64,000 nt of DNA, from the NCBI GenBank assembly GCA_947487765.1, contig CANKXO010000007.1, positions 22,180-86,179 of the forward strand, in the 5' to 3' direction. Of this stretch, positions 25,266-46,251 are shown piece by piece. Below the pieces are notes generated by a model. That model made no database searches. It worked only from the letters and a program-made list of their open reading frames with translations, and was not told the origin of the DNA. Source of the DNA: an uncultured Pseudomonadales bacterium. Lineage in GTDB: Bacteria; Pseudomonadota; Gammaproteobacteria; Pseudomonadales; Cellvibrionaceae. The position numbers were made by a program, and so were the translations under genes. The stretch's first letter is position 1. Each line of letters starts with the position of its first letter.

Positions 25266-25520
25266 GGCTTTCAAAAATATATCGCTATATTTTGTATAAA
25301 TAATAAAAATAAGCTTGAAATTTATCGTTACAAGCCTAGAATGCACATCAAATTAATTAATGCAGAGACTTTATCTTTGAAGCATTTACTCATATTTACA
25401 AATTACAGCATCGCTTCTGGGGCCGATAGTGCCCAAGAGATACGCTGTGCGTCAATATAACCTGTCTAAGTAAATATAGCTGGCAGGTTTAGCCTTCCAG
25501 TTTTAAAAAGTTATTAAAAA

Positions 25521-25557
25521 CCCGGAAGGCATAACTGCTTTTCGGGTTTTTTTATGC
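25521..25557. terminator. Rho-independent terminator (A-tract / stem / T-tract, bidirectional)
   Basis: aaaaa-cccggaagg-cataactg-cttttcggg-ttttttt. Confidence 0.6.
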
Positions 25558-26127
25558 CCGAGTTTTAAAAGTAAATGATGAGAGTAATTAGAACTTTGCT
25601 CTTATAAAGTTGTTGGTAGTTGCAATTTTGACAAATGCATAAAAATAGGAGAGTTATTATTGAAAGTTAATCAGAGGCTTAGATCGTTTATTTATAGATG
25701 AATAGTGTCATTCCACGAGTAGGGAAAATTTATTTTACAGATAAGTTTTCCTCGCTAAATTATTGTCGAATTTTTGTGAATATAGCCGCAATGGCATCGC
25801 TCGCCTATTGATTGCTAATACAATATAACTTATTGATATATAGATATTATTTCAAAAAATACTATGCCTTGTTTTAATTTTTATTACGGGCTATTGTTTA
25901 AAAAGATTTACGAAACAACACATCCAAGTGTTAACAAAAAAGAGATTTAACCATGAACCGATTACTCGGAATAAATAACCATCATACAGCTTCAGAGTGG
26001 CCATTAAAGAGTCAGCTGCTGCCGTTTAGTAATTGTTATCGTCAAAATCAAGGCGATATGAGTTTAGAGATGTAATTTGCACTTTCCTTACCGGAAGGCT
26101 GCAAGGCCAACCGGATACGTTTTTTTG

Positions 26128-26160
26128 AAACCCGATTGGCTTTGCTTATCGGGTTTTTTT
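26128..26160 (+). terminator. Rho-independent terminator; the module ccggaaggc...tcgggtttttttatgccc repeats the 25521 element
   Basis: cccgat-tggctttgctt-atcggg followed by a T7 tract. Confidence 0.55.
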
Positions 26161-26497
26161 ATGCCCTTCATGGATGAAGGGTACATCGAAAATGCAGGTC
26201 GGCTTTTGCTCCTGCAAAACCGACATTCACGCCATCCATGGCGCTTGAGCAATTTTTTGAGTGCCCAAAGATGGAAGATGAACCCATAACGCTCGAGAAC
26301 CTTTCGAGTATTAAAGGATTAATTTTACATGGCAGTATTTTAGGAAGTTACTCCACAAGGATGTTTTTTAATAGTGCAATGCCCACTTACACGGCATTAG
26401 TTTTTTAACAATTTGGTCGCTTTTTCCGGCATATAAGAAAGGTAAATACATTCTCGGTAATCTCGATGAGTCGTATTTTTTACTTATATGCCAAGTA

Positions 26498-26653
26498 TGC
26501 CCCTATCGTCTAGTTGGATAGGACGCTGGGTTTTCAATTCAGTAACGTCGGTTCGCCGCAAGCGGACCGGTCCAAAGTTATAAACTTTGGCCGTTCAAGA
26601 AACGCAAAGCATGCTTTGCTTAACATGTTTCTTTCACCCATCTAGGGGCACCA
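26498..26653 (+). ncRNA. Long tRNA-like RNA L1. The 5' part is a canonical tRNA-Glu(TTC) (acceptor, D-arm, anticodon arm, start of the T-arm); an approximately 95-nt hairpin-rich insert follows, then a 3' strand complementary to the acceptor 5' strand + A + CCA
   Basis: gccccta (26498-504) pairs 7/7 with taggggc (26643-649), followed by a-cca; anticodon loop ttTTCaa; the insert holds three clean hairpins (ccgc-aa-gcgg; cgg.ccaaagtt-ata-aactttgg.ccg; aagaaac...gcaaagc-at-gctttgc...gtttctt). Confidence 0.55.
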
Positions 26654-26663
26654 ATAATTTGTT

Positions 26664-26740
26664 ACGTCGATAGCTTAACTGGCAAAAGCTCTGGCCTCCA
26701 AAACCAGGCGATGTAGGTTCGAACCCTACTCGGCGTGCCA
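26664..26740 (+). tRNA. tRNA-Trp (CCA)
   Basis: acceptor acgtcga/tcggcgt (one G-U), D-stem gctt/aagc, anticodon loop ctCCAaa (stem has a C-A mismatch), T-arm gtagg-ttcgaac-cctac, discriminator G + encoded CCA. Confidence 0.75.
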
Positions 26741-26749
26741 AACATAAAT

Positions 26750-26909
26750 GCAGTGATAGCCCCAATAGATCGGCAGATTTTTGTTTCATTGAAGATCAGG
26801 AGAGTGCTGGTTCGACAGCTTTGTAGGAGCAAAAGTTGGACGCTTGTATAGGCGGTCGAGAAGCGATTATGCACAAGGATGTGTATAACAATTCCGGCTC
26901 ACTGCACCA
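26750..26909 (+). ncRNA. Long tRNA-like RNA L2. Acceptor-like 7/7 pairing + discriminator + CCA encloses about 145 nt, including a degenerate T-arm-like hairpin and an internal module paralogous to the one in L5
   Basis: gcagtga (26750-56) pairs with tcactgc (26899-905), followed by a-cca; internal gctg-gttcga-cagc; the block tttgtaggagcaaaagttggacgc...ggcggtcgagaagcgattatgcacaagga aligns with the L5 insert. Confidence 0.5.
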
Positions 26910-26916
26910 GTTTTAT

Positions 26917-26993
26917 TTCGGTGTGAAGCAGAGTGGTAATGCGCCTGACTGTTAATCAGGAGTTCGTTGGTTCGACCCTAGCCGCCGGAGCCA
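26917..26993 (+). tRNA. tRNA-Asn (GTT)-like (non-canonical D-arm)
   Basis: anticodon arm cctga-ctGTTaa-tcagg, T-arm gttgg-ttcgacc-ctagc, acceptor ttcggtg/cgccgga (G-U pairs), G + CCA. Confidence 0.55.
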
Positions 26994-27001
26994 ATTTTAT
27001 T

Positions 27002-27083
27002 GAGGGTGTTGAGCAGGTGGTGAGCTCAGCGGACTGTAAATTCGCCGGAAACTATGTAGGTTCGATTCCTTCCACCCTCACCA
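27002..27083 (+). tRNA. tRNA-Tyr (GTA)
   Basis: acceptor gagggtg/caccctc 7/7, D-stem gagc/gctc, anticodon gcgga-ctGTAaa-ttcgc, 10-nt variable region, T-loop ttcgatt, A + CCA. Confidence 0.8.
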
Positions 27084-27090
27084 AATTTCC

Positions 27091-27168
27091 GGGCCAATAG
27101 CATAATCGGTAAATGCCCCGGCCTCATAAGCCGGAGAAGGAGCGGTTCGAATCCGCCTTGGCCTACCA
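27091..27168 (+). tRNA. tRNA-Met/Ile2 (CAT)
   Basis: acceptor gggccaa/ttggcct, D gcat/atgc, anticodon ccggc-ctCATaa-gccgg, T-loop ttcgaat, A + CCA. Confidence 0.75.
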
Positions 27169-27186
27169 ATTAAATGATTAGTTAAT

Positions 27187-27261
27187 AGCGGTGTTGAGCA
27201 ATGGCTGCTTTCGGGTTTCATATGCCCGAGCTTGTTGGTTCGATTCCAACCACCGCAACCA
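27187..27261 (+). tRNA. tRNA-Met (CAT), second copy
   Basis: anticodon cgggt-ttCATat-gcccg, perfect T-arm gttgg-ttcgatt-ccaac, acceptor 6/7 (A-A at 1:72), A + CCA. Confidence 0.7.
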
Positions 27262-27265
27262 AATT

Positions 27266-27356
27266 GGAAGTGTGGCCGAGTGGTAAGGCAGCGGATTGCT
27301 AATCCGTACAGTGATAAATCGTTGCTGCATGAGTTCGAATCTCATCACTTCCTCCA
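27266..27356 (+). tRNA. tRNA-Ser (GCT), long variable arm
   Basis: ggaagtg...ggccgagtggtaaggc, anticodon gcgga-ttGCTaa-tccgt, long variable arm, T-arm atgag-ttcgaat-ctcat, acceptor 7/7, T + CCA; 91 nt. Confidence 0.9.
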
Positions 27357-27382
27357 AAATACTCCGGTGATGCAATTGGAAG

Positions 27383-27486
27383 GCAGGTTAAGGCTCCTGC
27401 AAAACCTGCATTCCCACCATCCATGGTGGTCACATAGCCCACTTAAAATCGGTTTGTTGCGAGTTCGACTCTCGCCGTCTGCATCA
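27383..27486 (+). ncRNA. Long tRNA-like RNA L4. Acceptor-like 6/7 pairing, a Cys-type T-arm (gcgag-ttcgact-ctcgc), a GCA-containing loop and a covarying internal hairpin; no encoded CCA. A degenerate paralogue lies at 26189-26310
   Basis: gcaggtt (27383-89) vs cgtctgc (27476-82); cctgcaaaacc loop; ccacc-atccat-ggtgg hairpin corresponds to acgcc-atccat-ggcg in the 26196-26251 copy (compensatory changes). Confidence 0.45.
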
Positions 27487-27574
27487 GTTTTTCGTGAGGT
27501 AATTCAATTAGCAGAATGCGATTTTCATAAAATCGGCGATAGTGGTGCAAGTCCACTCTTCACGACCGGTTAAT

Positions 27575-27648
27575 AGCAGCGTGGTGTAACGGTAACACAC
27601 CGGACTTTGACTTCGGTATTTCAGGTTCGAATCCTGGCGCTGTTGCCA
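27575..27648 (+). tRNA. tRNA-Gln (TTG)
   Basis: acceptor agcagcg/cgctgtt, D gtgt/acac, anticodon ccgga-ctTTGac-ttcgg, T-loop ttcgaat, G + CCA. Confidence 0.75.
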
Positions 27649-27688
27649 AATAGTATGTTGAGTAGGGTTCTAAAAATATTTAATTTTT

Positions 27689-27763
27689 GTGCGAGTGGCA
27701 GAATGATGATGCGCGGAACTGCAACTTCCGTTTACGCCGGTTTGATTCCGGCCTCGCACTCCA
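27689..27763 (+). tRNA. tRNA-Cys (GCA)
   Basis: acceptor gtgcgag/ctcgcac 7/7, anticodon cggaa-ctGCAac-ttccg, T-arm gccgg-tttgatt-ccggc, T + CCA; 3-bp D-stem as in E. coli tRNA-Cys. Confidence 0.8.
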
Positions 27764-27769: not shown

Positions 27770-27914
27770 CTGGATATAGCACAGCCTAGTAGCGTGTTGG
27801 GTTTAACTAAAATACATCCAAGTATTTTGCCCTTCGGGTTCTTCGAAGTTCAAAACGTTCCAGACGTTTTGTGGAGCTCAAAGTTTGTGGGTTCAAACCC
27901 TGCTATCCAGACCA
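27770..27914 (+). ncRNA. Long tRNA-like RNA L3. Canonical acceptor (7/7), D-arm and T-arm + A + CCA, with an approximately 85-nt structured insert replacing the anticodon region
   Basis: ctggata/tatccag; D gcac/gtgt; T-arm gtggg-ttcaaac-cctgc; the insert contains a cc-ttcg-gg tetraloop hairpin and aaaacgt-tccag-acgtttt hairpin. Confidence 0.55.
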
Positions 27915-27926: not shown

Positions 27927-28000
27927 GCGGTGTTGACCGAATGGTTAGGTACCTGCCTTCCAAGCAGAGGAAATGGGTTCGATTCCCATACACCGCTCCA
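27927..28000 (+). tRNA. tRNA-Gly (TCC)
   Basis: acceptor gcggtgt/acaccgc 7/7, anticodon loop ctTCCaa (4-5 bp stem), T-arm atggg-ttcgatt-cccat, T + CCA. Confidence 0.75.
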
Positions 28001-28008
28001 AAATTTAA

Positions 28009-28082
28009 TGAAGGTTGGCTTAGTGGCTGAGCACCGGACTTTTAATCCGGCTAGATGGGTTCGATCCCCATACCTTCAACCA
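28009..28082 (+). tRNA. tRNA-Lys (TTT)
   Basis: acceptor tgaaggt/accttca 7/7, D gctt/gagc, anticodon ccgga-ctTTTaa-tccgg, T-arm atggg-ttcgatc-cccat, A + CCA. Confidence 0.85.
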
Positions 28083-29358: not shown

Positions 29359-29432
29359 GCCCAATTGGCATAGTGGTCGTGCAGCTGCTTTGTAAGCAGC
29401 AGAGACAGGTTCAATTCCTGTATTGGGCTCCA
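29359..29432 (+). tRNA. tRNA-Thr (TGT)
   Basis: acceptor gcccaat/attgggc 7/7, D gcat/gtgc, anticodon gctgc-ttTGTaa-gcagc, T-arm acagg-ttcaatt-cctgt, T + CCA. Confidence 0.85.
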
Positions 29433-29441
29433 GTTTACATC

Positions 29442-29593
29442 GCCTGATTAGTTCAATTGGACTTAGAGCATCCGCCTACGACAATTTTGCAGGAGCAAAA
29501 ATTGGGCGTCTATAGAGGCGATCGTGAAACGATAATGTGCAGGACGCATATTACAAACGGGAAGATGCGGGTTCGAATCCTATTCAGGTGCCA
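29442..29593 (+). ncRNA. Long tRNA-like RNA L5. Acceptor 6/7 + G + CCA, canonical D-arm, T-arm-like gcggg-ttcgaat, and an approximately 95-nt insert paralogous to the L2 insert
   Basis: gcctgat vs ttcaggt; D gttc/gagc; insert aattttgc-agga-gcaaaaatt hairpin, atcgt-gaa-acgat hairpin; aligns with L2 (tttgYaggagcaaaaRttggRcg...ggcgRtcgNgaaRcgatWatg). Confidence 0.5.
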
Positions 29594-29601: not shown

Positions 29602-29678
29602 ACTCTCGTAGCTTAATTGGATAGAGCGTCTGTCTTCGAAACAGAACGGTGTTGGTTTGATTCCAACCGAGAGTGCCA
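29602..29678 (+). tRNA. tRNA-Arg (TCG)
   Basis: acceptor actctcg/cgagagt 7/7, D gctt/gagc, anticodon tctgt-ctTCGaa-acaga, T-arm gttgg-tttgatt-ccaac, G + CCA. Confidence 0.85.
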
Positions 29679-30991: not shown

Positions 30992-31064
30992 GTTTTTGTA
31001 GCTCATAGGGTAGAGCAATCGACTCATAATCGATGGGTAGCAGGTTCGATTCCTGCCTCAAACA
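30992..31064 (+). tRNA. Degenerate tRNA-Met (CAT)-like gene (weak acceptor 5/7, no CCA)
   Basis: D gctc/gagc, anticodon atcga-ctCATaa-tcgat, perfect T-arm gcagg-ttcgatt-cctgc. Confidence 0.4.
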
Positions 31065-31084
31065 CAGTCAGTTTTAATAAACTG

Positions 31085-31127
31085 AAGGAAAAGCCGAGAG
31101 GCTGAGGTTCGAATCCTCATTTGGTCT
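31085..31127 (+). other. Isolated tRNA 3'-half fragment (variable arm + T-arm + 3' acceptor strand)
   Basis: gccgagaggc...tgagg-ttcgaat-cctca-tttggtc with no upstream 5' partner. Confidence 0.45.
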
Positions 31128-31424: not shown

Positions 31425-32576
31425 ATGATTCTTTGGAAAACAATCGATATTGCGGAACATGAACGTGTATTACTTTATGTCCGTGATCAATTTAAACAAG
31501 TGCTAGGCCCAGGTCGGCATCGTGTCTCGACCTTGAAGGGAAAAGTTCGCCAGGAAACCTATGATATTACCGAAGTAGTATTCAGGCATCCTAAAGAAAA
31601 ATTTTTGCTGTCACACTACCCAGAAAAACTGGCAATGCACCTTGAGCAGTTTGACTTAAAAGATACTGAAGTGGGCTTGTTATATCGAAATGGCCATTTA
31701 ATGAATGTGTTGGCACCTGGTAGTTTATTTACAGTTTGGAAAGGTGTTGAGGATATTCGTGTTGACGTTATCGATATTAATAACCACTATCAGATAGAAG
31801 AGTCTTTAATTGGCTTATTGGGGCGAGGCATTAAAATTGGTCAAAGCCGAGAAGTCGTTAATGCGATTGCTTATGCAGAGGTAGTTGATGAGCATGTAGG
31901 TTTATTGCTGGTTAACGGTAAGCTAGAAAAGATCTTGCAACCGGGTAGTTACGGCTTCTGGAAATATAACCGTTCAATTGCGGTTAAAATGCTTGATCTT
32001 CGTTTACAAGCAATGGAGGTTAGTGGCCAAGAGATTCTGACCAAAGATCGCGTGAGTTTGCGTATTAACTTAACTGGTAGTTATAAAATTAAAGATCCTC
32101 AAATTGTTGCCTCTAAGGTGAATGATTACGCAGGTTTTATCTATCGTGAGTTGCAATTAAGTTTGCGAGAAATTGTAGGCACACAATCATTAGATGGATT
32201 GTTAGAAGATAAAGATGCTTTAAATTCTGTAATTACTCAGAGTACACGAGAAAAATTAGCGGAATACGGTATTCAGTTAATGAGTGTCGGGGTTAAAGAT
32301 ATTATTTTACCTGGTGAAATGAAGCAGATTCTGAATCGAGTAGTAGAGGCGCAAAAAGAGGCTGAAGCTAATTTGATTAAGCGTCGTGAGGAAACTCAGG
32401 CAATGCGTTCATTACATAATGCTGCCAAGATGATGGAAAACAACCCTGTGTTGTTACGTTTAAAGGAATTAGAAGCATTAGAAAGAGTGACTGGGAAAAT
32501 CGATAAGATTTCTGTCTATGGTGGCCTTGATAGTGTTCTTAATGACTTGGTAAAACTGGCGCCGGTCAAAACCTAA
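31425..32576 (+). CDS. SPFH/band-7 domain protein (cytoplasmic, duplicated N-terminal beta-domain)
   Basis: SPFH core TKDRVSLRINLTGSYKIKDPQIVASKV...QLMSVGVKDIILPGEMKQILNRVVEAQKEAEANLIKRREETQAM; no N-terminal TM. Confidence 0.7.
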   Translation: MILWKTIDIAEHERVLLYVRDQFKQVLGPGRHRVSTLKGKVRQETYDITEVVFRHPKEKFLLSHYPEKLAMHLEQFDLKDTEVGLLYRNGHLMNVLAPGSLFTVWKGVEDIRVDVIDINNHYQIEESLIGLLGRGIKIGQSREVVNAIAYAEVVDEHVGLLLVNGKLEKILQPGSYGFWKYNRSIAVKMLDLRLQAMEVSGQEILTKDRVSLRINLTGSYKIKDPQIVASKVNDYAGFIYRELQLSLREIVGTQSLDGLLEDKDALNSVITQSTREKLAEYGIQLMSVGVKDIILPGEMKQILNRVVEAQKEAEANLIKRREETQAMRSLHNAAKMMENNPVLLRLKELEALERVTGKIDKISVYGGLDSVLNDLVKLAPVKT

Positions 32577-32580
32577 AGAA

Positions 32581-32611
32581 AGCTGCTAGGTTATTTAGCA
32601 GCTTTCTTTGA
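32581..32611. terminator. Bidirectional terminator hairpin between the convergent SPFH and RT genes
   Basis: aaagctgcta-ggttatt-tagcagcttt (10-bp perfect stem). Confidence 0.6.
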
Positions 32612-32749
32612 TGAGAAGTTTACCTTTTAAATGACTGTTTCATGCAATGATGAAACAATAGCAATATCGAACATCATTTGTTATTAATGAGTTAATTTTT
32701 TTATAATTGAATGCTAGGGTTGAAGTTCATAAGATGTTTTTATTGAGCG

Positions 32750-34531
32750 CTAGCGAAAAGATACAATCAAAAATATAAGTACAGCAATTGCCGCAAAAAT
32801 CATTACGCGAGCGAAGGGTTGCATAGAATCTGTATTAGATGCATCCGATAGCCATGGTGATTGAGATTCTTTCTGTTGTTGTGACTTAGTTTCTTCCTTT
32901 TTTGTTTGTTTTTTTGCGGTCGCTATTTGTTTAAGCTCTTCTGTAGTATTCTCTTTAACAGGTGGTGCTGGTGGCTCAGCTTGCCACCAGTTTTCGCGTG
33001 GTGCTTCACCGGCAGCGGCCTTTAAGCGTAAAAGTTTATTATTTAATTTGCCAATGCGACTTGGATTAACTTGATAACTGTATTTTTGTTTTAGTTGTAC
33101 TATTTGCTTTTGTAAAGGAATGCCCTTGCTAGGGTTAACCATTGCGACAAAGTTGGCGTAACCTTCTATGGAGCACAATAAATTGCTACTGCTATTGTGA
33201 GAACGATGAGCCCAGTGCTTACCCTCTAGCCCGCTTTTGTCAATTTGATGTAGTAAGGCTCTGAAGCGCTTTAAGGTCTTGCGATCAACGCTAAGGTTAT
33301 TATTCACTACCACGCCGGTCACTTCTTGTTTTTTATGCTTGCGCATAATGCGTGTTTTTTCGGGGTGAACAATAAAACCTTCATCCTTAATAATACTATG
33401 ACAACGCCACAATAGTTTTTTTACAATGCTGTCGTCAATATTCTGTGGATTAATATCATCGCCCTTGTTGGAGCTTGCCGAAAAAGTAACATCGTCAGCA
33501 TATCGCGTATAAGTAAAGCCTAATTTTTTAGCCATCCCTTGTAAGCGAGCATCCAATTTTCTACAGATGATATTGCTAATATTAGGGCTAGTTGGCGCTC
33601 CTTGCGGTAAAAAGCGCTCTCCGTTACTAACAAACCAAGACTGACTATCTAGTTCAACCTCCTGTGTATTCGCTTCGGTGCAAAGTAAGGCTAGTACTGT
33701 TGCAATGTGTTCACTGTAACCTAGAGCTTTAAACATCCCCTTAACTCTTGGATAGCTAATTGTTGGAAAGAAGTTTTTAAGGTCGAGGTTAATAACAATA
33801 TCTTTGCCTACATGAGGCGCAGCATTGGTTACGATAGAGCGCGTGCGTACAAAGCCATGAGCGGCATCATGTAATGCCAGCGGCTCTAAAATATTGGATA
33901 AAACCCAATACTGGGCAAGTTTCAACCGTGGCATAGGGGCAGATATTAGGCGAGTTCCACCGGTTTTCTTGGTCATTTGGAAGCGTTGATAATGACTAAT
34001 CGTGCAGACATCTTTTTGGTAGACTAAAAAACGTAGCTCATTAACGGTAATGCCCATGGCTCTGGCCAACATTTGGCTGTCGTGCAGTAGTGGTAACTGT
34101 TGGGCTTGGAGTTTGTCTTCATCGCTGTTAACTTTTGATAGCCCTATCGATAAACCTTCCCCTACGAAGGTAATAAATTTCTTTTGGATGTCGTACCAAT
34201 TCTTTGCTCGTTGGTATCGTGTTTCATTGCGTTCTTTACGCTTTTCTTCTCTACGAATAAGTGCTTCTTTTTTACGCTGTTTGTGTAACTCCTTTAGTGC
34301 TTGCTCTGGGTCTTGATACAATTGCTGTTGCTTTCCTAATTCACGCAGTTGCTTTTGTAACTGCCCGCGCTTTTCAATAAAGGTTTCTGTTAGTGTTGGC
34401 TGTTCACTATTTTTTGGCCAAAACCCAAGACGTTTCATCTCTGCTAAAATATAAACTTCTTTACCACCTGTTTCGCGTACGCGCTGGTAGAGTTCTTGGC
34501 GGCTTAATTTTTTAGTGCTTTCGTCAGACAT
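32750..34531 (-). CDS. Retron-type reverse transcriptase with a long N-terminal extension and a C-terminal transmembrane anchor
   Basis: RLISAPMPRLKLAQYWVL, NAAPH (NAxxH), NLDLKNFFPTI, QGAPTSP, YADD, VTGVVV (VTG); collinear with Ec86 RT; C-terminus MIFAAIAVLIFLIVSF is hydrophobic after a Lys/Gln-rich low-complexity linker. Confidence 0.85.
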   Translation of the reverse strand: MSDESTKKLSRQELYQRVRETGGKEVYILAEMKRLGFWPKNSEQPTLTETFIEKRGQLQKQLRELGKQQQLYQDPEQALKELHKQRKKEALIRREEKRKERNETRYQRAKNWYDIQKKFITFVGEGLSIGLSKVNSDEDKLQAQQLPLLHDSQMLARAMGITVNELRFLVYQKDVCTISHYQRFQMTKKTGGTRLISAPMPRLKLAQYWVLSNILEPLALHDAAHGFVRTRSIVTNAAPHVGKDIVINLDLKNFFPTISYPRVKGMFKALGYSEHIATVLALLCTEANTQEVELDSQSWFVSNGERFLPQGAPTSPNISNIICRKLDARLQGMAKKLGFTYTRYADDVTFSASSNKGDDINPQNIDDSIVKKLLWRCHSIIKDEGFIVHPEKTRIMRKHKKQEVTGVVVNNNLSVDRKTLKRFRALLHQIDKSGLEGKHWAHRSHNSSSNLLCSIEGYANFVAMVNPSKGIPLQKQIVQLKQKYSYQVNPSRIGKLNNKLLRLKAAAGEAPRENWWQAEPPAPPVKENTTEELKQIATAKKQTKKEETKSQQQKESQSPWLSDASNTDSMQPFARVMIFAAIAVLIFLIVSFR

Positions 34532-34638
34532 CTGCCTGTCTCCCTAATATAAATAAGGATAAATGTTGAGTGTTAAAAAAATGGATAATGATAGTTGTTA
34601 CAAGAACAAATAAAGAAGAGAAGTGCGCAAGATAAAAG

Positions 34639-34868
34639 GGTGCCAGCGTGCTCAATGTTTCCTTCGTAGAGCTCTTAGTACTGGATTGATCAACTCGACG
34701 CGGCACGCCCCTACTATCGCTCATTGACTTCATGGAAGTCATACCGCAATAGCGATAGTAGGGGCTGTGCCGCCCTATGAAGATCAGGCCAGTGACGCGT
34801 GTGTAGTCTATAAACCAGAACGGCGATGCACCGCTCAAATTGCAAGGTAGATAAGTCACGCTGACACC
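34639..34868 (-). ncRNA. Retron msr-msd non-coding RNA (a1/a2 inverted repeats flanking a long msd hairpin)
   Basis: a1 ggtgtcagcgtg (minus strand, plus coords 34857-34868) pairs with a2 cacgctggcacc (34639-34650) over 12-14 bp; about 72-nt near-perfect palindrome at 34701-34772 (cggcacgcccctactatcgct...agcgatagtaggggctgtgccg with inner gacttc-atg-gaagtc). Confidence 0.7.
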
Positions 34869-34931
34869 TGTGCTAGTATAGCAGTGTTGTTAGGTTTTAA
34901 AAGAGCGCTATTAAAATTCTTCATGATCTCT

Positions 34932-36643: not shown

Positions 36644-39600
36644 TTAAACACCCAGCGATGCAGGTTGTTTAATGGGTACCTTTTTGGCTGTTAAGGGTGA
36701 TGCTATATCTGGATACAATGATTGTAATTTAAGCATAGCTTTTATCAAAGCGGCTTTATCTTTATGTACCATAGTTAACGAAATTCGTTCCAATAAAGGC
36801 ATTACCATAGTGGCAACACTTATATCTTTTTCTGCTTCTCTTAATAAAAACAGTAGAATCCTATCTTTACAAACGCGACCCTTATTAATTTGTGATAACG
36901 CTGTTGTAAAATAAGCTTGTAATGAAAGTATATGGCTAGGAATACCCGCCGCGTATTCTTCTAAAAAACTGCTGACAAAAAGCTGTACATTATTTGACGG
37001 ATGCTGGCTTAACTTAAGCAAGTATTCTGGGCCATACTCAGCTTTAAAAAAAGATTGTAGTATTTCGCGTCCAAAGCTTTGTACGTCATCTCTGATGCTG
37101 TCGCAAATAAAAATAACAATTTCAGGGCTCCAATCTTCTTGGCTGTATTGTTGTCGAAAAAAATCAAAGCCAAAGGTTCTTGCATCGTCCCAGTTGCTAT
37201 TTAGAATTCGAAGAGCATCACGACTGTATTGTTTAATTTCATCTACATTTTTCTCGTAAGCCTGAAATGCAAACTGCCTGACAGATACATCGCTATGCTG
37301 GCCTAATATTGCCCATTGTTTGACTGAAAATATATCTGCATTACGTTCAGTTAAGGTTATGGCGCCCACTCGTTGAGCACAGATAGATTGTGCCTGTAAT
37401 AAGCGCCATAGCATATCATTGTCTAGTTTCGTTAAATGTGATTGTGCCAATGAAGTAAAAAAGGCAATTAATTCTTCATGTTGCCCAGGCTGCTCTTCAG
37501 ACTTAAATGTCAGCGCTAATAATGTATTTTCAATCTGCTCGGATCCCTGTTGAGAGTTGGTCATTAGGCGGGAAAAAATAGAAAGTAGGGAGGCGCGCTC
37601 TTGAGTATCGCCCTTGCAATACAAGCCGACTAATAAGTCTAATTGTTTGATTAAGTCTTTATCGGCTTGTTTGCCTAGTAATGCAGCACCTATCCCTCTA
37701 ACTTCGGCTGAGGATGAATCATGAATTGCCTGTAATAAGCTGTCGGGAATATCTCCATAAGATATTTTGTGTCCAAGCAATAATTTTGCACCTAATATTT
37801 TTCTGGGTACTTTCTCGTCATGAATTAAACGTTGCAAACTAGTAAGAGGGAAGTGTTTAATTGCATCATTTAGGTTCTCAAGTGCAAAATCGGCCAAATA
37901 CTCTGCATGCTTTTCGCTTAAGTTGCTGTTCTCTAAAAAGATAGAATCAACTATAGCTTGCAATAGTTTCTCAGCATTTCTACCAGAAATCTTTTGCTGG
38001 CAAACAGCCGTTTTAATGTCACTTTGTACATCACTATGAAGAATCAATAGTAGTGATGTTAATAGTGAAATATCATCATTAATTTTGAACCTTAGTAAAG
38101 ATTGCTTACCTAATACTCTAGCCTCAGTCAGCGAGCTACTTAGTAGAGCGATTAATAATTCACTACTTAAATCGTCTTGTTTAATGCGTTCGCGAACAAT
38201 TGCTAGTGCAAATTCACAAGTACTCGCATAGTTGCTGTTCAGTAAAAGAGCTAAATCTACAGGGCTGATTTTCTGGCAAAAACTCGGTTGATTTTCTAAT
38301 ATCCGACGAGCGAAAGGATGAACCAGCTCGCATCGACTTGTTTTTAATAAGCGTAGTGCATGGCTAGGCTTTTGATCCCAAAGTTCAGCAAAGCATTCGG
38401 TACGAGATCCATTTATCAAGGAAGTACCGTCGGTATTCGACTCATCACTTTTTATCCAGACGCGGCCACTAGGTGCAAGTTGATACCCTGGATGATGTTC
38501 GAAGAGGATATGATTTAAGCTTAAGAAGCTGGCAAAAGGGCCATATTCATTGCTGGATATCAACTGGCGTTGCCAATTGTCGCCACTATTATCCCAGCGA
38601 TAAACCTCTGATGTTCGAGGCTTGCTACCATGCTCATCATTAATCGCAAGCAATGATTCTGTTGCCATATCAACATAACGGAGATCACCGGCCTGTCCTA
38701 TACGCCTGAGTACTCGCCAGCTACGACGGCGAAAGTAATCTCGTGTACGATGCGAGAAGGTCAATTTTGCATTGGCCTTTTTCAGTTCTTTAGATGGTTT
38801 AATACTGCCTTCACCGGGAAGCCATGCCCAATCCCAATCATTACGAAAAAATGCGGGTGCTGTTTCTATACGCTGCGCTAATAAGCCAAATACAGACCCG
38901 TCAAGACGTAGCTCGGATGCTTTATAAATTGATCTAATGCCCCGAAAATATCCTGGGGTTAGGGGAATAATAGCCAGTTGACTTAATAATGCTTGATGCA
39001 ATATGGGGTAAGCTAGCGATAGCTGATAACAAAGTACCAATAGCTGATTAGTATTGTTAACGTTGTCACTAGCCCCATGACTGAGCAACGCGCCAAGTTG
39101 CTGATGAGCAGTGCTACTATTTCCTTCCATAACAGCAGATTTAAACTGTGCAGGAAAGTGCTGCCAATGGCTGCCTAACAAGGCTTTGCGCGATGTTTGG
39201 TCGCTGATTAATAGTTGCGATTCAAAGGCTATATGACAAACTTGTGCTTGTTTGTGTTGCCTCAAGGTTTCTAAAACCGCCTTGTGTTGCGTGGCAACCA
39301 TCCGCCCCAAGGCCCAAGCAATAGAGTAATCCTCTAACCAATGGCCTTTCTTAATATAGGGCACAATTGCATTGGCAATAGGTTCACAATCTCGGTGCCC
39401 TAATTCCCCGAGTCGCCATATCATGCGGCTGCGAGATTTAGTCTCTTTTTCATTGGGTAAATGATTGAGTATCTGTTCAATTAGTTTAAAAGGAAAGTCA
39501 TCGGAGGCAAGATTGCTAGAAGGGACGCCTGCAAGTGTAGGCGAGGTAGTAGTAGGGGACTGTTTTGCTTGTTCTCTATCCCAATAGCCTTTATTGACTT

Positions 39601-39820
39601 TGGATACAACAACACTATCAAATAGCTTCTCTGCTTTGCTAAGCTCAACAGCTTCAGGGGTTTTAGTGCCTTCTCTTAATTGATTGCCGCGACGCCCGTA
39701 TCGAAAATTAACGAGATAACGTTCATCTTTTCGGCTTGCTAACTCACATAAATCAACTTCATAAACTTTGTCGGAATTGCCTTCCTGATACACCAATCGA
39801 GATTGCTTGATTAGTCGCAT
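36644..39820 (-). CDS. Large WGR-like + alpha-helical repeat protein (MolR/DUF4132-like), retron accessory
   Basis: N-terminal KVYEVDL...YLVNFRYGRRGNQLREGTKT resembles a WGR domain; the remaining roughly 950 aa are Leu-rich helical repeats. Confidence 0.55.
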   Translation of the reverse strand: MRLIKQSRLVYQEGNSDKVYEVDLCELASRKDERYLVNFRYGRRGNQLREGTKTPEAVELSKAEKLFDSVVVSKVNKGYWDREQAKQSPTTTSPTLAGVPSSNLASDDFPFKLIEQILNHLPNEKETKSRSRMIWRLGELGHRDCEPIANAIVPYIKKGHWLEDYSIAWALGRMVATQHKAVLETLRQHKQAQVCHIAFESQLLISDQTSRKALLGSHWQHFPAQFKSAVMEGNSSTAHQQLGALLSHGASDNVNNTNQLLVLCYQLSLAYPILHQALLSQLAIIPLTPGYFRGIRSIYKASELRLDGSVFGLLAQRIETAPAFFRNDWDWAWLPGEGSIKPSKELKKANAKLTFSHRTRDYFRRRSWRVLRRIGQAGDLRYVDMATESLLAINDEHGSKPRTSEVYRWDNSGDNWQRQLISSNEYGPFASFLSLNHILFEHHPGYQLAPSGRVWIKSDESNTDGTSLINGSRTECFAELWDQKPSHALRLLKTSRCELVHPFARRILENQPSFCQKISPVDLALLLNSNYASTCEFALAIVRERIKQDDLSSELLIALLSSSLTEARVLGKQSLLRFKINDDISLLTSLLLILHSDVQSDIKTAVCQQKISGRNAEKLLQAIVDSIFLENSNLSEKHAEYLADFALENLNDAIKHFPLTSLQRLIHDEKVPRKILGAKLLLGHKISYGDIPDSLLQAIHDSSSAEVRGIGAALLGKQADKDLIKQLDLLVGLYCKGDTQERASLLSIFSRLMTNSQQGSEQIENTLLALTFKSEEQPGQHEELIAFFTSLAQSHLTKLDNDMLWRLLQAQSICAQRVGAITLTERNADIFSVKQWAILGQHSDVSVRQFAFQAYEKNVDEIKQYSRDALRILNSNWDDARTFGFDFFRQQYSQEDWSPEIVIFICDSIRDDVQSFGREILQSFFKAEYGPEYLLKLSQHPSNNVQLFVSSFLEEYAAGIPSHILSLQAYFTTALSQINKGRVCKDRILLFLLREAEKDISVATMVMPLLERISLTMVHKDKAALIKAMLKLQSLYPDIASPLTAKKVPIKQPASLGV

Positions 39821-40200
39821 AGCTTCCTTAAACTCTTTTATTTTTTGATAAACTTATTTTTTTGAGTATAGCATTATCCTAATAATGGACAAGACTACAT
39901 GGCTATATTATATCTAGAGTTTACACTCGCTCTATCGTAAAGACTATGCTTCTATATACTTCATTCACGTTTTATTAGATAGCAATTATAACCTTTACCC
40001 CTTTCCCTGACGTGATTGTAAAGTGTTAATTTCATATTTGGGTTTACGGCGGTGCTATAATTTTGGTTGCTGTGTCAGGAAGTGTCGCGTTATTTTCAAT
40101 TCTAAAGGTTATCTTGATGAATGTGTTACCTAGCCCGATGACAAATATGTAATTACTATATTTTAAACAATTTTTAAATGCTTAACTGGTAGTAAAGTAT

Positions 40201-41460
40201 ATGCAATTAAATAATAAAAAAGTTTACTTAGTTGGCGGAGCTGTCCGTGACGAACTATTGAATCGCCCAGTTTCAGATCGAGACTGGGTGGTGATTGGTG
40301 TGACTCCAGAAATGTTGATTAAGCAAGGCTATCGGCAAATCGGTAGTGACTTTCCTTGCTTTTTGCATCCTGAAACCAAAGATGAATATGCACTGGCACG
40401 TACGGAGAAAAAATCAGGAAGCGGCCATACAGGGTTTGTGTGTGATTTTAGTCCTGAGGTAACTCTCGAAGAAGATTTATCTCGGCGCGACCTCACCATC
40501 AATGCCATTGCTAAAACAGTAGAGGGTGAATATGTTGATCCTTATGGAGGCAGAGAAGATTTAGAGAATCGAATATTGCGCCATGTATCAGATGCATTTG
40601 CTGAAGACCCATTGCGTGTGTTACGCGTTGCTCGTTTTGCCGCTCGCTACGCAGAGTTAGGTTTTACGGTACACCCAAGTACATTAGCCTTAATGGCTCA
40701 GTTAGTCAGTTCTGGTGAACTATCAGAATTAACACCAGAGCGAGTCTGGAAAGAAATGTCTCGTGCATTAACAGAGCCTCGTCCTAGTGAGTTCTTTCGT
40801 GTGCTTCGTGCCTGTGGTGCTTTGTCGGTACTATTACCCGAAGTAGATTGCTTATTCGGTGTTCCTCAGCCACCCCAACATCATCCTGAAATTGATACCG
40901 GCGATCATGTAATGATGGTGGTTGATATCGCTAAAGAGCGCTTTGATTCTATTAATATCACTTGGGCTGCCTTAATGCATGATTTAGGAAAAGGGCTGAC
41001 GCCTGAAGAGGAGTGGCCCAAGCATATCCGTCATGAAATTAAAGGTGTGCCATTAGTTGAGGCTGTTTGCGAGCGTTATAAAGTTCCGCGTGATTTTAAA
41101 ACATTAGCAATGTTAGTTTCTGAGCACCATTTGCGTTGCCATAAATTATTAGAGATGAGACCAAAATCCATTATGCGCTTATTAGAAGCGCTGGATGCTT
41201 TTAGGCGGCCAGAGAGGGTTAAATATTTTGCGCAAGCCTGCGAAGCCGACGCCAGAGGTCGCTTAGGTTTAGAAGATAGAGATTACCCACAATCGTCACT
41301 ATTAATAAAATGCGGTGAAGTGGGGAAGGATATAGATATTAAGCCTTTACTGGATGAAGGCTACCAAGGCTTGAAGCTGGCGGAACAGATTCGCCGTTTA
41401 CGACTAGGGGCGATTAAGAGGTTTATGGCAAATTATCGAAAAGAAATATTAGGGAAATAA
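40201..41460 (+). CDS. cca: CCA-adding tRNA nucleotidyltransferase with HD domain
   Basis: LVGGAVRDELLNRPVSDRDWVV, TERKSGSGHTGF, RRDLTINAIA, LRVLRVARFAARY, HHPEIDTGDH, collinear with E. coli Cca. Confidence 0.9.
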   Translation: MQLNNKKVYLVGGAVRDELLNRPVSDRDWVVIGVTPEMLIKQGYRQIGSDFPCFLHPETKDEYALARTEKKSGSGHTGFVCDFSPEVTLEEDLSRRDLTINAIAKTVEGEYVDPYGGREDLENRILRHVSDAFAEDPLRVLRVARFAARYAELGFTVHPSTLALMAQLVSSGELSELTPERVWKEMSRALTEPRPSEFFRVLRACGALSVLLPEVDCLFGVPQPPQHHPEIDTGDHVMMVVDIAKERFDSINITWAALMHDLGKGLTPEEEWPKHIRHEIKGVPLVEAVCERYKVPRDFKTLAMLVSEHHLRCHKLLEMRPKSIMRLLEALDAFRRPERVKYFAQACEADARGRLGLEDRDYPQSSLLIKCGEVGKDIDIKPLLDEGYQGLKLAEQIRRLRLGAIKRFMANYRKEILGK

Positions 41461-44091: not shown

Positions 44092-44093
44092 AT

Positions 44094-44789
44094 ATGAAAA
44101 TAGTGAAAGGAGAAAATGAAAAAAATATTGCATGGTTGCAAGTAACCTCTGGTCAAGGGCCGAAAGAATGCGCTTGGGTTGTCGCACGATTAGAGCCGAT
44201 CATTTTGCAAGAGGCTAAAAAGGCTGATCTGTCTGCTGAGCGCATTGAAGCTTTGGCTTTTGATAAATTGCTACGGAAGCAAAATCTTATCGAGACTGAT
44301 GCTTATTTATCGATATTAATCCGCTTGCAAGGGAGGGGAGTCGACGAGTTTGTTCAATCTTGGCAGGGAACGATTAAATGGCAAGGCGAAAGCCCCTATC
44401 GTCCCAAGCATAAGCGATTTAACTGGTTTGTCGGTGTTGCAACACTTGCTATACCAGAGAAGCAAAACGTTGAGTTAAGTAGTTTATCTAAAGATATTGA
44501 TTTTGAATCAATGCGAACAAAGGGGCCAGGTGGGCAACATGTAAATAAAACGAATAGCGCGATTCGTGCGACGCATCGACCAACAGGTTTGCAAGTACGG
44601 GTTGAAACGGACCGTTCTCAGCATAGGAACAAGCAAATAGCATTGGAGCGTTTGCAAATGTTGCTAGCTCAAAGAGGTAGTAATGAGAAAAAATCAATAG
44701 AGCATGCACGCTGGCTGCAACACTATGATGTGAAAAGGGGCAGTCCTACACGCATATTTTATGGGAAAGGATTTACCGAAAACCATTGA
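44094..44789 (+). CDS. prfH: Peptide-chain-release-factor homologue PrfH
   Basis: GGQ motif RTKGPGGQHVNKTNSAIRATHRPTGLQV, short RF lacking full codon-recognition domains, immediately downstream of rtcB2. Confidence 0.8.
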   Translation: MKIVKGENEKNIAWLQVTSGQGPKECAWVVARLEPIILQEAKKADLSAERIEALAFDKLLRKQNLIETDAYLSILIRLQGRGVDEFVQSWQGTIKWQGESPYRPKHKRFNWFVGVATLAIPEKQNVELSSLSKDIDFESMRTKGPGGQHVNKTNSAIRATHRPTGLQVRVETDRSQHRNKQIALERLQMLLAQRGSNEKKSIEHARWLQHYDVKRGSPTRIFYGKGFTENH

Positions 44790-44917
44790 TCTATTAAAAA
44801 ACTGGAGTAATGAAATGAATAATCAACAAACCCCGTTGGGCATTTATCGAAATAAGAAGCGAATTTTTACGCCTTCCAAATGGCAGGTTGCTGTAATGAA
44901 CGAAAGAGAATACGAAG

Positions 44918-45874
44918 ATGAAACAGGAAGAGTTAAGCGAGGTGTTGGATTGCCTAGGGAATGAAAGAACACTTTTTTACTACTTTAAAGATCGCTATTG
45001 CTTAGATTTAATTGGCTGGTATATGGATAAAACAAAAAGTCGGTCATTGTTGATTAGGGATTTAAATAAAAGCGGCTTGAAAAATATTCTTCAGAAACCA
45101 GTCATGAGAGAGATTATTAAAAATTGCGGCCATGGTTTTTTGACAAAAGAAATCATAAAAGCCTTCTGGTTCCATGACTTTTTAACGTTCACTTTAACAT
45201 TGGATCATTGGGGAGAAGGGGATAGAGGTTATGACCAAACCTCCAGAAACCAAAAGAATTTAGTGTTGCAGCTGAATTTTGACAATAAACATACGAGTGA
45301 ATATCAGCGTTTATTAAAGCCTGACGACCACTATGGGCCTTTTGAGTGCTGGTGTCACCCTGTTAGGCAGGATGCTAAAAAGACGATGTCGTGGGTAAGA
45401 ATGGATTTCGACTTTACAACCAATGAAGCGCTAATCGAAGAGGTTCAAAATGATTGGTTGCGACAGGCAAATGGAGGATTAACTCGTGTTAAAAAAAGTT
45501 TATCGAGAAAATCAACGCTTAAGCCAGGTGATATTGTTAGCGGCATTCATTGTGAATATAAAGACTTGGAATATTATGTTGAAGAAGTACTGAAGCCTTA
45601 TCGAAAGCTATGGGCAGAAGCTTCTATGCTGGCAGCCATACAATTTATACGTAATGAGTTAGGTATTAATACGATTTACTATCATAGCTTCAGTACAGGT
45701 AATAAGTTGAAGAAGGTTTATGGTTTGCCACCTAGATCAATGTATACACAATTGCCTAAAAAATTTGGTTTTGAATTGACTGAAGAAGCACCTGAGTTTT
45801 TAGCAAGAGATAAACATGCTAAGCGTTACATTAAGGCCATTGAAAACCCGCGATGGTATCGTATGGCGTTATAA
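44918..45874 (+). CDS. Hypothetical protein (318 aa) downstream of prfH
   Basis: intact ORF with no recognisable motif by eye. Confidence 0.5.
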   Translation: MKQEELSEVLDCLGNERTLFYYFKDRYCLDLIGWYMDKTKSRSLLIRDLNKSGLKNILQKPVMREIIKNCGHGFLTKEIIKAFWFHDFLTFTLTLDHWGEGDRGYDQTSRNQKNLVLQLNFDNKHTSEYQRLLKPDDHYGPFECWCHPVRQDAKKTMSWVRMDFDFTTNEALIEEVQNDWLRQANGGLTRVKKSLSRKSTLKPGDIVSGIHCEYKDLEYYVEEVLKPYRKLWAEASMLAAIQFIRNELGINTIYYHSFSTGNKLKKVYGLPPRSMYTQLPKKFGFELTEEAPEFLARDKHAKRYIKAIENPRWYRMAL

Positions 45875-45907
45875 GTGCATTAAACAACCTAATTAAGGAG
45901 AAATGCT

Positions 45908-46087
45908 ATGAATACTTACAATGAAAATCAAAAGAGCTTTCGAGGTCACTAGCAAACGACGTAAAGGTTACCCTTCAGAAACACAGGTTATGAAGGGAGA
46001 CCGCGTGGTTCACGGAGACAAAGAGCTCATCGAAAAGCTGGGCAGGAATGACCCTTGCCCTTGTGGCTCCAGGAGGTTATTTTAAAA
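45908..46087 (+). pseudogene. Frameshifted SEC-C-motif (CPCGS...KKCC) small-protein remnant
   Basis: frame [15 protein letters not shown]; frame B ...[40 protein letters not shown]. Confidence 0.5.
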
Positions 46088-46251
46088 AGTGCTGTCTTAA
46101 ATCAGGTTGCTTTTGACGGTGCCAATCGTGATTACTACTACCGTTAGCGAATACTCTCCGCCTCCATTTTCGTGGAAGTGGAGAGTGAATAAAAGTTTGA
46201 GATGAGAGTAACAAGGTATACTTTGTCAACATGTTCCTAATTGATAAAATG

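Follow-up and report, generated by a model that had tools for sequence, protein, structure and literature searches.

A tRNA array with interrupted tRNA genes, two RNA-repair modules and a type XIII retron at a variable site of a Cellvibrionaceae-like gammaproteobacterium

Long, non-periodic tRNA arrays have been described as L-arrays, which are horizontally transferred, indel-prone and pseudogene-containing, carry a conserved HNH homing-endonuclease gene and have rtcB as a neighbouring or co-regulated gene; an L-array is induced by translation stress and aids the survival of Anabaena (Santamaria-Gomez et al. 2021, PMC8421152). Phage tRNA clusters (T4 SegB, jumbo phages) bring together tRNAs, an RNA ligase, RlaP, a CCA enzyme and a homing-type nuclease, a combination that has been read as a defence against tRNA nucleases of the host (PMC2330249, PMC7824862). 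In E. coli ATCC25922, the RtcB2-PrfH pair rescues ribosomes cut by colicin E3 and religates them (PMC9304027, PMC9223846), and Burroughs and Aravind (PMC6514570) described accessory zinc-ribbon and unknown 'RFR' proteins around it. RlaP and cREC were defined through linkage to RNA ligases (PMC12776372, PMC7824862), and an SPFH gene lies inside the rtc locus of P. aeruginosa (PMC13086221). Type XIII retrons, the group of Mx162, Mx65, Sa163 and Ne144, have partner proteins predicted to be DNA-binding or transposase-like/-derived, not RNases (Mestre et al. 2020, PMC7736814). Here we analyzed an interval of approximately 21 kb (25266-46251) in a 64-kb stretch of contig CANKXO010000007.1, which is referred to as the window and whose positions are used for all coordinates. 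The interval carries a tRNA array, two RNA-repair modules and a retron, and each of its parts appears from sequence to belong to a known kind.

The explanation that we consider probable, with some reserve, is a nested mosaic at a variable site, composed of three separable units: a repair cassette (module A), a second repair module (module B) and a type XIII retron (module C). Confidence is high for the structural claims drawn from the comparison of loci, namely the mosaic, the independent retron, the recurrent cassette and the interrupted tRNAs, and moderate for the functional steps that we infer for this organism.

Protein families in the interval were assigned by Pfam, NCBIfam and PADLOC. 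A sequence-only reading of the same DNA had listed a tRNA array, two RtcB ligases, a CCA enzyme, a nucleotidyltransferase, PrfH, HNH, SPFH and a retron without any integrase, and every item of this inventory was found where it had been placed (Table 1). Among the interval's open reading frames (ORFs) of 100 aa or more, and among sampled flanking ORFs, none had an integrase or transposase domain; the flanking ORFs sampled (at least 150 aa; 9.8-18.6, 22.3-24.3 and 48.1-58.9 kb) all belonged to ordinary metabolic, transport or regulator families. Classical integrative islands have an integrase or recombinase gene, direct repeats at a tRNA on their flanks and an atypical G+C content. By integrase and G+C content the locus did not look like one: there was no integrase, and the G+C content (0.33-0.47 per kb) showed no difference from the flanks.

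Homologues of RtcB1 were 100% identical on an NCBI contig, 95% in the metagenome-assembled genome (MAG) OZ245996.1, 87% in Aurantivibrio infirmus and 77-78% in Simiduia, which would place the window in or near Cellvibrionaceae; exact-protein look-ups with RtcB1 itself gave no entry. The complete Cellvibrionaceae MAG OZ245996.1 (loci L001 and L003) is the nearest relative. The other loci compared include those of A. infirmus (L002), Simiduia (L018) and Endozoicomonas numazuensis (L019), four metagenome contigs with an RtcB approximately 60% identical to RtcB1 (L026, L027, L028 and L068), and two loci with relatives of the retron reverse transcriptase, from Spartinivicinus ruber and Hahella (L100 and L101). 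When species-representative genomes were scanned with the LysR protein, six relatives were found. The MAG was syntenic through LysR and carried the island. In IMCC1989 and Motiliproteus the upstream synteny was kept through LysR, and no tRNAs and no island genes were found beyond it. Since the island is absent at the LysR site of these two genomes, it represents an acquired, variable segment, and the block appears to behave as an acquired island without an integrase. On the right, the block shared with the MAG stopped near 46147 and not at 46251, and the aminotransferase gene was not its neighbour there.

Table 1. Features of the interval and its flanks, in window coordinates
Feature	Position	Strand	Basis or remark
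LysR gene	24357-25265		left flank of interval
weak inverted free-standing mini-element copy, upstream of array	26158..26224	-	covariance model 16.9 bits, E = 0.004
interrupted tRNA-Glu(UUC)	26499..26653	+	80-nt hairpin-rich T-loop insert 26556-26635; MAG gene uninterrupted, L001 8520-8595
tRNA-Trp(CCA)	26664..26740	+	ARAGORN; Rfam 55 bits
interrupted Phe(GAA)-derived gene	26750..26909	+	type-A element 26814-26892 in T-loop after GGUUCGAC; covariance model 90.6 bits
tRNA-Asn(GUU), Tyr(GUA), Met(CAU) x2, Ser(GCU)	26917..27356	+	ARAGORN; Rfam 41-65 bits
chimeric UAA pseudo-tRNA	27361..27486	+	class-I tRNA(UAA) 5' part and anticodon arm, 48-nt D-loop insert, 3' end of another tRNA
tRNA-Met(CAU), Gln(UUG), Cys(GCA)	27493..27763	+	ARAGORN
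interrupted tRNA-like gene	27770..27914	+	~68-nt insert in anticodon-loop region (27806-27873); acceptor stem, T-arm and CCA readable
tRNA-Gly(UCC), Lys(UUU)	27927..28082	+	ARAGORN; sequence
RtcB1, 3'-phosphate/5'-OH RNA ligase family	28116-29312	+	PF01139, 428 bits; embedded between array tRNAs
tRNA-Thr(UGU)	29359..29432	+	ARAGORN
interrupted tRNA-Arg(ACG)	29441..29592	+	type-A element 29480-29557 in anticodon loop after CUACGAC; covariance model 91.1 bits
tRNA-Arg(UCG)	29602..29678	+	ARAGORN; Rfam 65.5 bits
degenerate His remnant	near 29700-29800
cREC-like protein, 97 aa from internal Met	29918-30211	+	PF20274, 20.6 bits, E = 7e-4, below 27-bit cut-off
HNH endonuclease	30251-30814	+	PF14279 55 bits, PF01844 46 bits
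embedded tRNA-Met(CAU), between HNH and SPFH	30992..31065	+	ARAGORN
T-arm-like hairpin GAGGUUCGAAUCCUC	31103..31119	+	~40 nt past embedded tRNA-Met
SPFH/Band-7 protein	31425-32576	+	PF01145, 108 bits
retron-bearing indel block, 7.66 kb	32564..40228	-	96 bp in its place in MAG
retron reverse transcriptase, type XIII (Ne144/Mx162 clade)	32750-34531	-	PADLOC RT_XIII E = 8.8e-188, 623 bits; PF00078
msr-msd non-coding RNA, ~230 nt	34639-34868	-	between SWIM and reverse transcriptase; a1/a2 inverted repeats, msr hairpin, long msd hairpin
SWIM zinc-finger partner (cluster 114)	34932-36572	-	PADLOC SWIM_XIII E = 1.3e-232
WGR + HEAT/ARM partner (cluster 216)	36644-39820	-	PADLOC WGR_XIII E = 0, 1030 bits; Pfam WGR, HEAT_2 weak
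Cca with HD domain, multifunctional CCA-adding/repair enzyme	40201-41460	+	NF008137 621.5 bits vs 451; PF01743, PF12627, PF01966
RlaP nucleotidyltransferase (RNA-ligase-associated Pol-beta family)	41465-42367	+	PF10127 69.6 bits vs 23
RtcB2, PrfH-paired RtcB subfamily	42865-44091	+	NF007153 487 vs 407; TIGR03073 423 vs 272
PrfH, release-factor homologue	44094-44789	+	TIGR03072 207.6 vs 166.65; 3 nt after RtcB2
uncharacterised 318-aa RtcB/PrfH-associated protein	44918-45874	+	GNAT-like predicted fold
54-aa ORF, truncated SEC-C zinc-binding motif at end	45921-46085	+	PF02810 23.5 bits vs 20.4, motif positions 1-11/19
class-V aminotransferase/cysteine-desulfurase-like gene	46252-47946	-	right flank of interval

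By model matches and RNA covariation, module C is a complete type XIII retron of the clade 10 group of reverse transcriptases (RTs), with the RT, both partners and the non-coding RNA (ncRNA). The RT_XIII model scored far above the other PADLOC RT models, and one RT homologue was named 'RT-Ne144' by its source. The ncRNA had a fold z-score of -6.8, and in a consensus of three loci 18 of 69 pairs were compensatory (changes on both sides), the a1/a2 helix included. The RT clade, the SWIM partner, the WGR + HEAT/ARM partner and the position of the ncRNA immediately upstream of the RT were as in other type XIII retrons and nothing essential differed; what sets this genome apart is the site of insertion, within a locus for RNA repair. 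At the C-terminus of the RT (32750-32830) a hydrophobic stretch, MIFAAIAVLIFLIVSFR, was noticed, which is membrane-anchor-like and lies outside the coverage of the RT_XIII model.

The corresponding locus of the MAG contains, in order, LysR, a 16-tRNA array, RtcB, a small ORF, HNH, a tRNA, Band_7, Cca, RlaP, RtcB, RF-1(PrfH) and a 320-aa gene, and no retron. Homology with the window stopped just inside the end of SPFH and resumed just inside cca; local alignment placed L001 14526 at window 32563 and L001 14623 at window 40229, tblastx synteny agreed, and the few bases found there in the MAG include a terminator. RT relatives with 53-64% identity in Spartinivicinus ruber and Hahella had the same HEAT/WGR-SWIM-gap-RT order and lay beside unrelated metabolic genes, in one case also beside insertion sequence elements; RtcB, PrfH and tRNA arrays were absent from the surrounding 10 kb. 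An RT match was likewise absent from all 20 other loci in which HNH, SPFH or the 318-aa protein accompanies RtcB. Because the MAG locus is retron-free and the retron relatives occur in unrelated contexts, the retron represents an independent insertion. It appears to be a defence system acquired on its own, at a site that was variable before its arrival, and only in this genome does it lie between SPFH and cca. The comparative evidence therefore gave no support for a functional link between the retron and RNA repair.

Module A, which comprises the array, RtcB1, the cREC-like gene, HNH, the embedded tRNA and SPFH, appears to be a horizontally spread cassette for backup and repair of translation, its tRNA and protein genes apparently co-transcribed. 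RtcB1 shares 25% identity with RtcB2, and its orthologues of 77-95% identity sit in tRNA-rich loci. In Aurantivibrio (RtcB1 87%) the order is four tRNAs, ArfA, RtcB, a 98-aa ORF, HNH, a tRNA, Band_7, SEC-C and a 311-aa homologue of the 318-aa protein, and this locus has no Cca, RlaP, RtcB2 or PrfH. At another chromosomal site, L102 (89%) has nine tRNAs, RtcB, a cREC-like gene, DUF6717 and HNH. L017 (85%) has RtcB, a non-homologous 119-aa ORF, tRNA-Met and Band_7; Simiduia (78%) has two tRNAs, RtcB, a cREC-like gene and HNH; L103 (84%) has RtcB and a 97-aa ORF that is cREC-like by position alone, and no tRNAs. In Endozoicomonas (69%), RtcR, an odd tRNA-like gene, Band_7, RlaP and RtcB were found. 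The distant arrays contain 24 tRNAs in L026, 23 in L028, 15 intact plus four interrupted in L027 and seven in L068, and in all four the array directly precedes HNH, a homologue of the 318-aa protein (not detected in L068), a tRNA, SPFH and RtcB.

Taken gene by gene, HNH homologues lie beside arrays in L001, L002, L018, L022, L026-28, L068 and L102, SPFH homologues adjoin RtcB in L001, L002, L017, L019, L026-28, L031, L037 and L068, and a tRNA directly upstream of SPFH was also found in L001, L002, L017, L026, L027, L028 and L068. The cREC-like gene is the gene after RtcB1 in relatives; in its alignment, which holds five sequences, four of them homologous, three match PF20274 below cut-off. The cassette occupies different chromosomal sites among relatives (Aurantivibrio, L102, L026-28, L068). 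The association of the tRNA array with RNA-repair genes, to which the sequence-only reading had pointed, was thus recurrent in relatives at other sites and in metagenome contigs with approximately 60% RtcB identity, and it appears to be real and not a chance neighbourhood. The metagenome scan with RtcB1 returned only relatives of about 60% identity, and the close relatives came from look-ups. Phage and plasmid collections gave only rtcB matches, at approximately 66% nucleotide identity, and no array or cassette. Recurring across distant bacteria, the cassette offers testable candidates for backup or repair of the translation apparatus under ribotoxin or antibiotic stress.

Two observations on these loci may be added. 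In E. numazuensis (L019 5821-11194) the tRNA-like gene at 7719-7790 was read by ARAGORN with a 2-nt anticodon, and this locus would be an RtcR-controlled version in which a tRNA-like RNA heads the operon. In Aurantivibrio the gene for ArfA, an alternative ribosome-rescue factor, lies between two tRNAs just upstream of RtcB (L002 9162-9302), which is another link of such arrays to ribosome rescue.

Module A shares with L-arrays the long non-periodic array, the patchy distribution, indels and pseudogenes, the HNH gene beside the array and a nearby rtcB, as well as surroundings rich in genes for RNA processing and translation (here RtcB1, SPFH, Cca, RlaP, RtcB2 and PrfH). It differs in that RtcB lies inside the array and is apparently co-transcribed, in that SPFH, the cREC-like protein, the GNAT-like 318-aa protein and the embedded tRNA are extra recurrent partners, in that several tRNAs are split by a mini-element, and in that the array is chromosomal in a Cellvibrionaceae-like gammaproteobacterium and not in a cyanobacterium. 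Searches of PMC8421152 gave neither these partners nor the mini-element. From phage tRNA clusters it differs in having no phage genes in or beside the interval, and no phage or plasmid record exceeded the rtcB match mentioned above. The RtcR-regulated rtc and rsr-Y RNA operons of E. coli, Salmonella and P. aeruginosa also combine RtcB with tRNA-like RNAs, RlaP or SPFH (PMC7790460, cited in PMC12776372; PMC13086221). RtcR, RtcA, Rsr and Y RNA at gathering score were absent from the window, where the sole Y-RNA-like match was to YrlA, with 24 bits against a 69-bit cut-off. In the literature searched, an embedded RtcB with recurrent SPFH, GNAT-like protein and embedded tRNA together with interrupted tRNAs was nowhere described as a unit, and the architecture of the recurrent cassette is apparently undescribed; an earlier description of the protein neighbourhood is possible. 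The main comparative paper on RtcB-type repair systems, with RtcB/SPFH/HNH neighbourhoods, is reportedly that of Burroughs and Aravind from 2016.

Module B consists of Cca-HD, RlaP, RtcB2 and PrfH, with RtcB2 497 nt downstream of RlaP. It is separable from the array module: of the loci compared, only the window and the MAG combine these four genes with module A. The adjacent RtcB2-PrfH pair has the same arrangement as in the described module, 3 nt apart, and passed the curated NCBIfam cut-offs (PMC9304027, PMC9223846, PMC1586002). Here it has Cca-HD and RlaP upstream and the 318-aa and SEC-C genes downstream, and is nested in a tRNA-array cassette.

The 318-aa protein had no Pfam or NCBIfam match, a sequence search of solved structures was empty, and all of its approximately 780 homologues were without a name. 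An AlphaFold2 model from a 37-sequence alignment had a mean predicted local distance difference test score of 91, and a distant GNAT-like domain is likely from the predicted fold. That the protein acylates aminoacyl-tRNA or a ribosomal component is speculation. The family adjoins RtcB in 17 of 85 screened loci and PrfH in L020 (1870-3500), and it may correspond to the unnamed RtcB/PrfH-associated proteins of PMC6514570. The 54-aa SEC-C ORF is conserved in L001 (95%) and L002 and may be truncated or frameshifted; in Aurantivibrio a 42-aa SEC-C ORF was seen next to the 311-aa homologue. Both the GNAT-like protein and the SEC-C mini-protein thus appear to travel with module-A-type cassettes elsewhere.

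The array is a non-periodic run on one strand at 26.5-31.1 kb with spacers of mostly 5-40 nt. ARAGORN detected 14 tRNAs, all on the plus strand, between 26664 and 31065, and Rfam reported 13 above its gathering score and 14 when run in E-value mode, with scores of 41-65 bits. Another five or six tRNA-derived elements, interrupted or degenerate, bring the array to approximately 20, the size given by the sequence-only reading. That reading had also noted only one orphan tRNA 3' fragment, as a possible attachment-site (att) remnant. More than one degenerate tRNA remnant is present, and the fragment meant is probably the hairpin at 31103-31119, which was kept in L001 and L002 although the surrounding spacer has diverged and which was also flagged as terminator-like. 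Rather than an att remnant, this hairpin may represent a signal for processing, a terminator or a mini-helix. The Phe-Asn-Tyr order of the window also occurs in the distant arrays L026 and L028, and the array tRNAs are presumably supernumerary to the housekeeping set.

Comparison with the MAG revealed erosion in both arrays. The window has lost the UAA/UAG/CAA trio, of which one chimera is left in the 27361-27763 region, as well as His, all of which are intact in the MAG; three intact tRNAs (UAA, UAG and CAA) occupy there the place of the pseudo-tRNA at 27361-27486, from which no in-silico deletion restored a tRNA. Conversely, Gln and Cys, intact in the window, have collapsed to a single remnant in the MAG (L001 9299-9700). 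The differing erosion suggests frequent recombination between tRNA T-arms. The array tRNAs with Leu-type anticodons (UAA, UAG and CAA; L001 9299-9543, L002 9470-9654, L027 2303-2379) are 77-78 nt long and have no long variable arm, so that their amino-acid identity is ambiguous.

Only 33 nt separate the end of tRNA-Lys from the start codon of RtcB1, and the spacers of 33-46 nt around RtcB1 suggest a single tRNA-mRNA transcript of the array and RtcB1. In the A+T-rich leader of 1.2 kb between LysR and the array, two strong hairpin and T-run terminators were recognized by eye (25440-25560 and 26085-26165), which were absent from the list of the consensus scan; given these, the array transcript must begin past approximately 26165. 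Promoter and terminator scan counts did not exceed those of shuffled sequence and were uninformative on operon structure.

The genes regarded earlier as tRNA-like are tRNA genes split in the T-loop or the anticodon loop, as determined by alignment with the MAG and by in-silico deletion. A recurrent insert, type A, is an element of approximately 75 nt with four hairpins. Deletion of 74-76 nt restored tRNA-Arg(ACG) in the window and in L001, and the intron mode of ARAGORN also called tRNA-Arg(ACG). In the Phe-like gene of the window the D and anticodon arms are degenerate and deletion no longer restores a tRNA; its MAG orthologue was restored to tRNA-Phe by a 74-77-nt deletion, and Aurantivibrio has an intact homologue (L002 9065-9140). 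The tRNA-Glu gene of the window was restored by deleting 78-80 nt. Its insert is unrelated to type A, without a second copy among the sequences compared; it is present or absent between genomes with 95% identical RtcB1, which points to a recent event, and the T-stem of the gene in the window has gained a mismatch. The insert at 27806-27873 resembles an inverted mini-element (weak minus-strand match of 9.7 bits, E = 0.19) and is shorter in L001, and the free-standing copy at 26158-26224 shares a motif with the insert at 27385-27432. Systematic deletion of 70-80 nt also restored a class-I tRNA(UAG) in Aurantivibrio and Glu, Lys, Trp and Leu(UAA) in L027.

When the covariance model of the mini-element was searched over approximately 560 kb, copies were found only inside or beside arrays: two in the window (plus one weak), two in the MAG, two in Aurantivibrio, three in L102 and four in L027. 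In the model-fitted alignment 93.5% of the cells were paired and 17 of 24 pairs had changes on both sides, values that none of 500 shuffles reached, and the covariation score was 0.59 compared with at most 0.17 for slid controls. The element of the L027 tRNA-Trp is inverted, with 30.9 bits on the minus strand and no plus-strand match there; weaker inverted matches were found in the L027 tRNA-Lys and at window 27806-27873 and 26158-26224. The clearest type-A copies (window, MAG and Aurantivibrio) come after a CGAC-type sequence, the boundaries in L027 can be read likewise, and no target duplication was evident. The universally conserved T-loop supplies this CGAC target. In a scan of viral contigs the motif TTGYAGGAGCAAAARTTGG had eight matches; none was near tRNAs and the matches were treated as chance. 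The idea of the inserts as Y-RNA-like scaffolds was set aside, as there is no Ro/Rsr gene and both orientations occur.

Miniature inverted-repeat transposable elements (MITEs) of the IS200/IS605 type (PATE-like) insert 3' of a short fixed target, have subterminal hairpins, cause no target duplication and have a cognate Y1 transposase. The mini-element resembles them in its small size, terminal hairpins, short specific site, lack of an obvious duplication and occurrence in both orientations; the likeness in presence/absence polymorphism comes from a different insert, that of Glu. It differs in having four hairpins instead of two, in occurring only in or beside tRNA arrays and in the lack of a cognate transposase in the sequences examined. 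Because of the two orientations, the CGAC target and the decay of the host tRNAs, the element of about 75 nt is most likely miniature mobile DNA rather than an intron, and the tRNA genes disrupted by inserts are probably pseudogenes. Such a loop-targeting element would account for the quarter of the array that tRNA finders overlook.

An intron is nevertheless suggested by several features. The inserts of 75-80 nt could be true introns or processed tRNA-embedded RNAs, excised by self-cleavage or by a nuclease leaving cyclic-phosphate and 5'-OH ends, with RtcB1 rejoining the exons in the manner of archaea and eukaryotes. They lie precisely in loops and their removal gives canonical tRNAs, the four-hairpin structure is conserved with strong covariation, the copies are confined to the arrays and their surroundings, and the array itself contains an RtcB gene; in archaea, too, introns are found at non-canonical positions, the T-loop among them. 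However, an RNA-level signal should not allow both orientations relative to the tRNA, the placement after a CGAC-type target is like a site-specific DNA insertion, a weak copy was found away from any tRNA, the bodies of the interrupted tRNAs have decayed after insertion (Phe-like gene, Glu T-stem) and no candidate splicing endonuclease was found. Archaeal and eukaryal tRNA introns have bulge-helix-bulge junctions, a splicing endonuclease and a single orientation, and group I tRNA introns sit in the anticodon loop and have a catalytic core of some 200 nt or more. The inserts are 48-80 nt long, lie mostly in the T-loop and had no Rfam intron match; in Rfam E-value mode (E up to 10; 25.2-31.5 kb) no ribozyme, intron or Y-RNA family explained them, the best match being the YrlA match given above. 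No relevant report of small non-group-I inserts in tRNA genes of bacteria emerged from a literature search. Functional introns are, in our judgement, very improbable. If true, they would mean protein-dependent tRNA splicing in bacteria, with a cassette bearing both substrates and ligase, and the element is in any case a clean and directly testable case for asking whether bacterial RtcB acts in tRNA splicing.

For the locus as a whole, the sequence-only reading had proposed a unified hub, in which retron and repair genes form one system and the latter confer tolerance of, or immunity to, RNA damage from the retron effector or a phage-triggered ribotoxin. The genes are indeed nested, the retron being placed between SPFH and cca with a shared hairpin terminator (32573-32610); clustering of defence and counter-conflict genes is known, and RNA-repair systems have been read as conflict systems (PMC6514570). 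We regard this reading as very unlikely, since the closest relative has an identical repair locus without the retron, the two other type XIII cassettes are beside metabolic genes and away from RtcB, PrfH and arrays, no RT match occurred in the other RtcB-associated loci, and the type XIII partners are not predicted RNases (PMC7736814). The association of the array with repair genes survives from it. Its single system does not, given the retron-free MAG locus and the separable modules, and the genes, expected to move among relatives as a block rather than scattered, moved as two or three sub-blocks and not as one of 21 kb. Comparison with one close relative was enough to split the hub into a retron and two repair modules and to avert a false link between the retron and RNA repair. 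Somewhat less remote, and still unlikely, is that the array and HNH are decaying phage or conjugative DNA spread by homing, of no benefit to the host, with the repair genes hitch-hiking. The lineage-specific erosion with losses, chimeras and insertions, the low scores of several tRNAs (41-50 bits), the likeness of the HNH beside the array to homing endonucleases such as T4 SegB (PMC8421152) and the different chromosomal sites in relatives all agree with such a relic. It is opposed by RtcB, HNH, SPFH, the 318-aa protein and the embedded tRNA staying with arrays down to approximately 60% RtcB identity, by the placement of RtcB1 between tRNAs with spacers suggesting one transcript, by the absence of the cassette from phage and plasmid records, and by the functional L-array of Anabaena, which helps survival (PMC8421152).

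In the nested mosaic that we prefer, ribotoxins or translation stress would cut tRNAs or 16S rRNA and leave 2',3'-cyclic-phosphate and 5'-OH ends. The array would provide substitute tRNAs, RtcB1 and cREC-like end processing would reseal cut tRNAs, and Cca-HD and RlaP would restore trimmed 3' ends. PrfH would free the stalled damaged ribosome and RtcB2 would religate the 16S rRNA. The HNH protein would most likely help the array to spread through homing, a role proposed for L-arrays and T4 SegB, and the retron would work apart as an anti-phage system. Several results weigh against this explanation. No anticodon nuclease or ribotoxin gene was identified near the locus; the arrays of the window and L001 erode differently and several tRNAs are disrupted, indicating weak selection on individual tRNAs; the sigma-70 scan gave fewer promoter-like sites than shuffled sequence; and the cREC assignment is sub-threshold. 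As for the mini-element, no transposase was found in the sequences examined, and the covariation alignment was fitted to the model and so leans towards it.

Outside the interval, a second variable region was observed in the window at 9600-18935 (approximately 9.3 kb), which is missing from the otherwise syntenic MAG (L003). It contains an RND efflux system (outer-membrane factor, AcrB-type pump and HlyD-type adaptor), a sodium/glutamate symporter and a DUF900 hydrolase.

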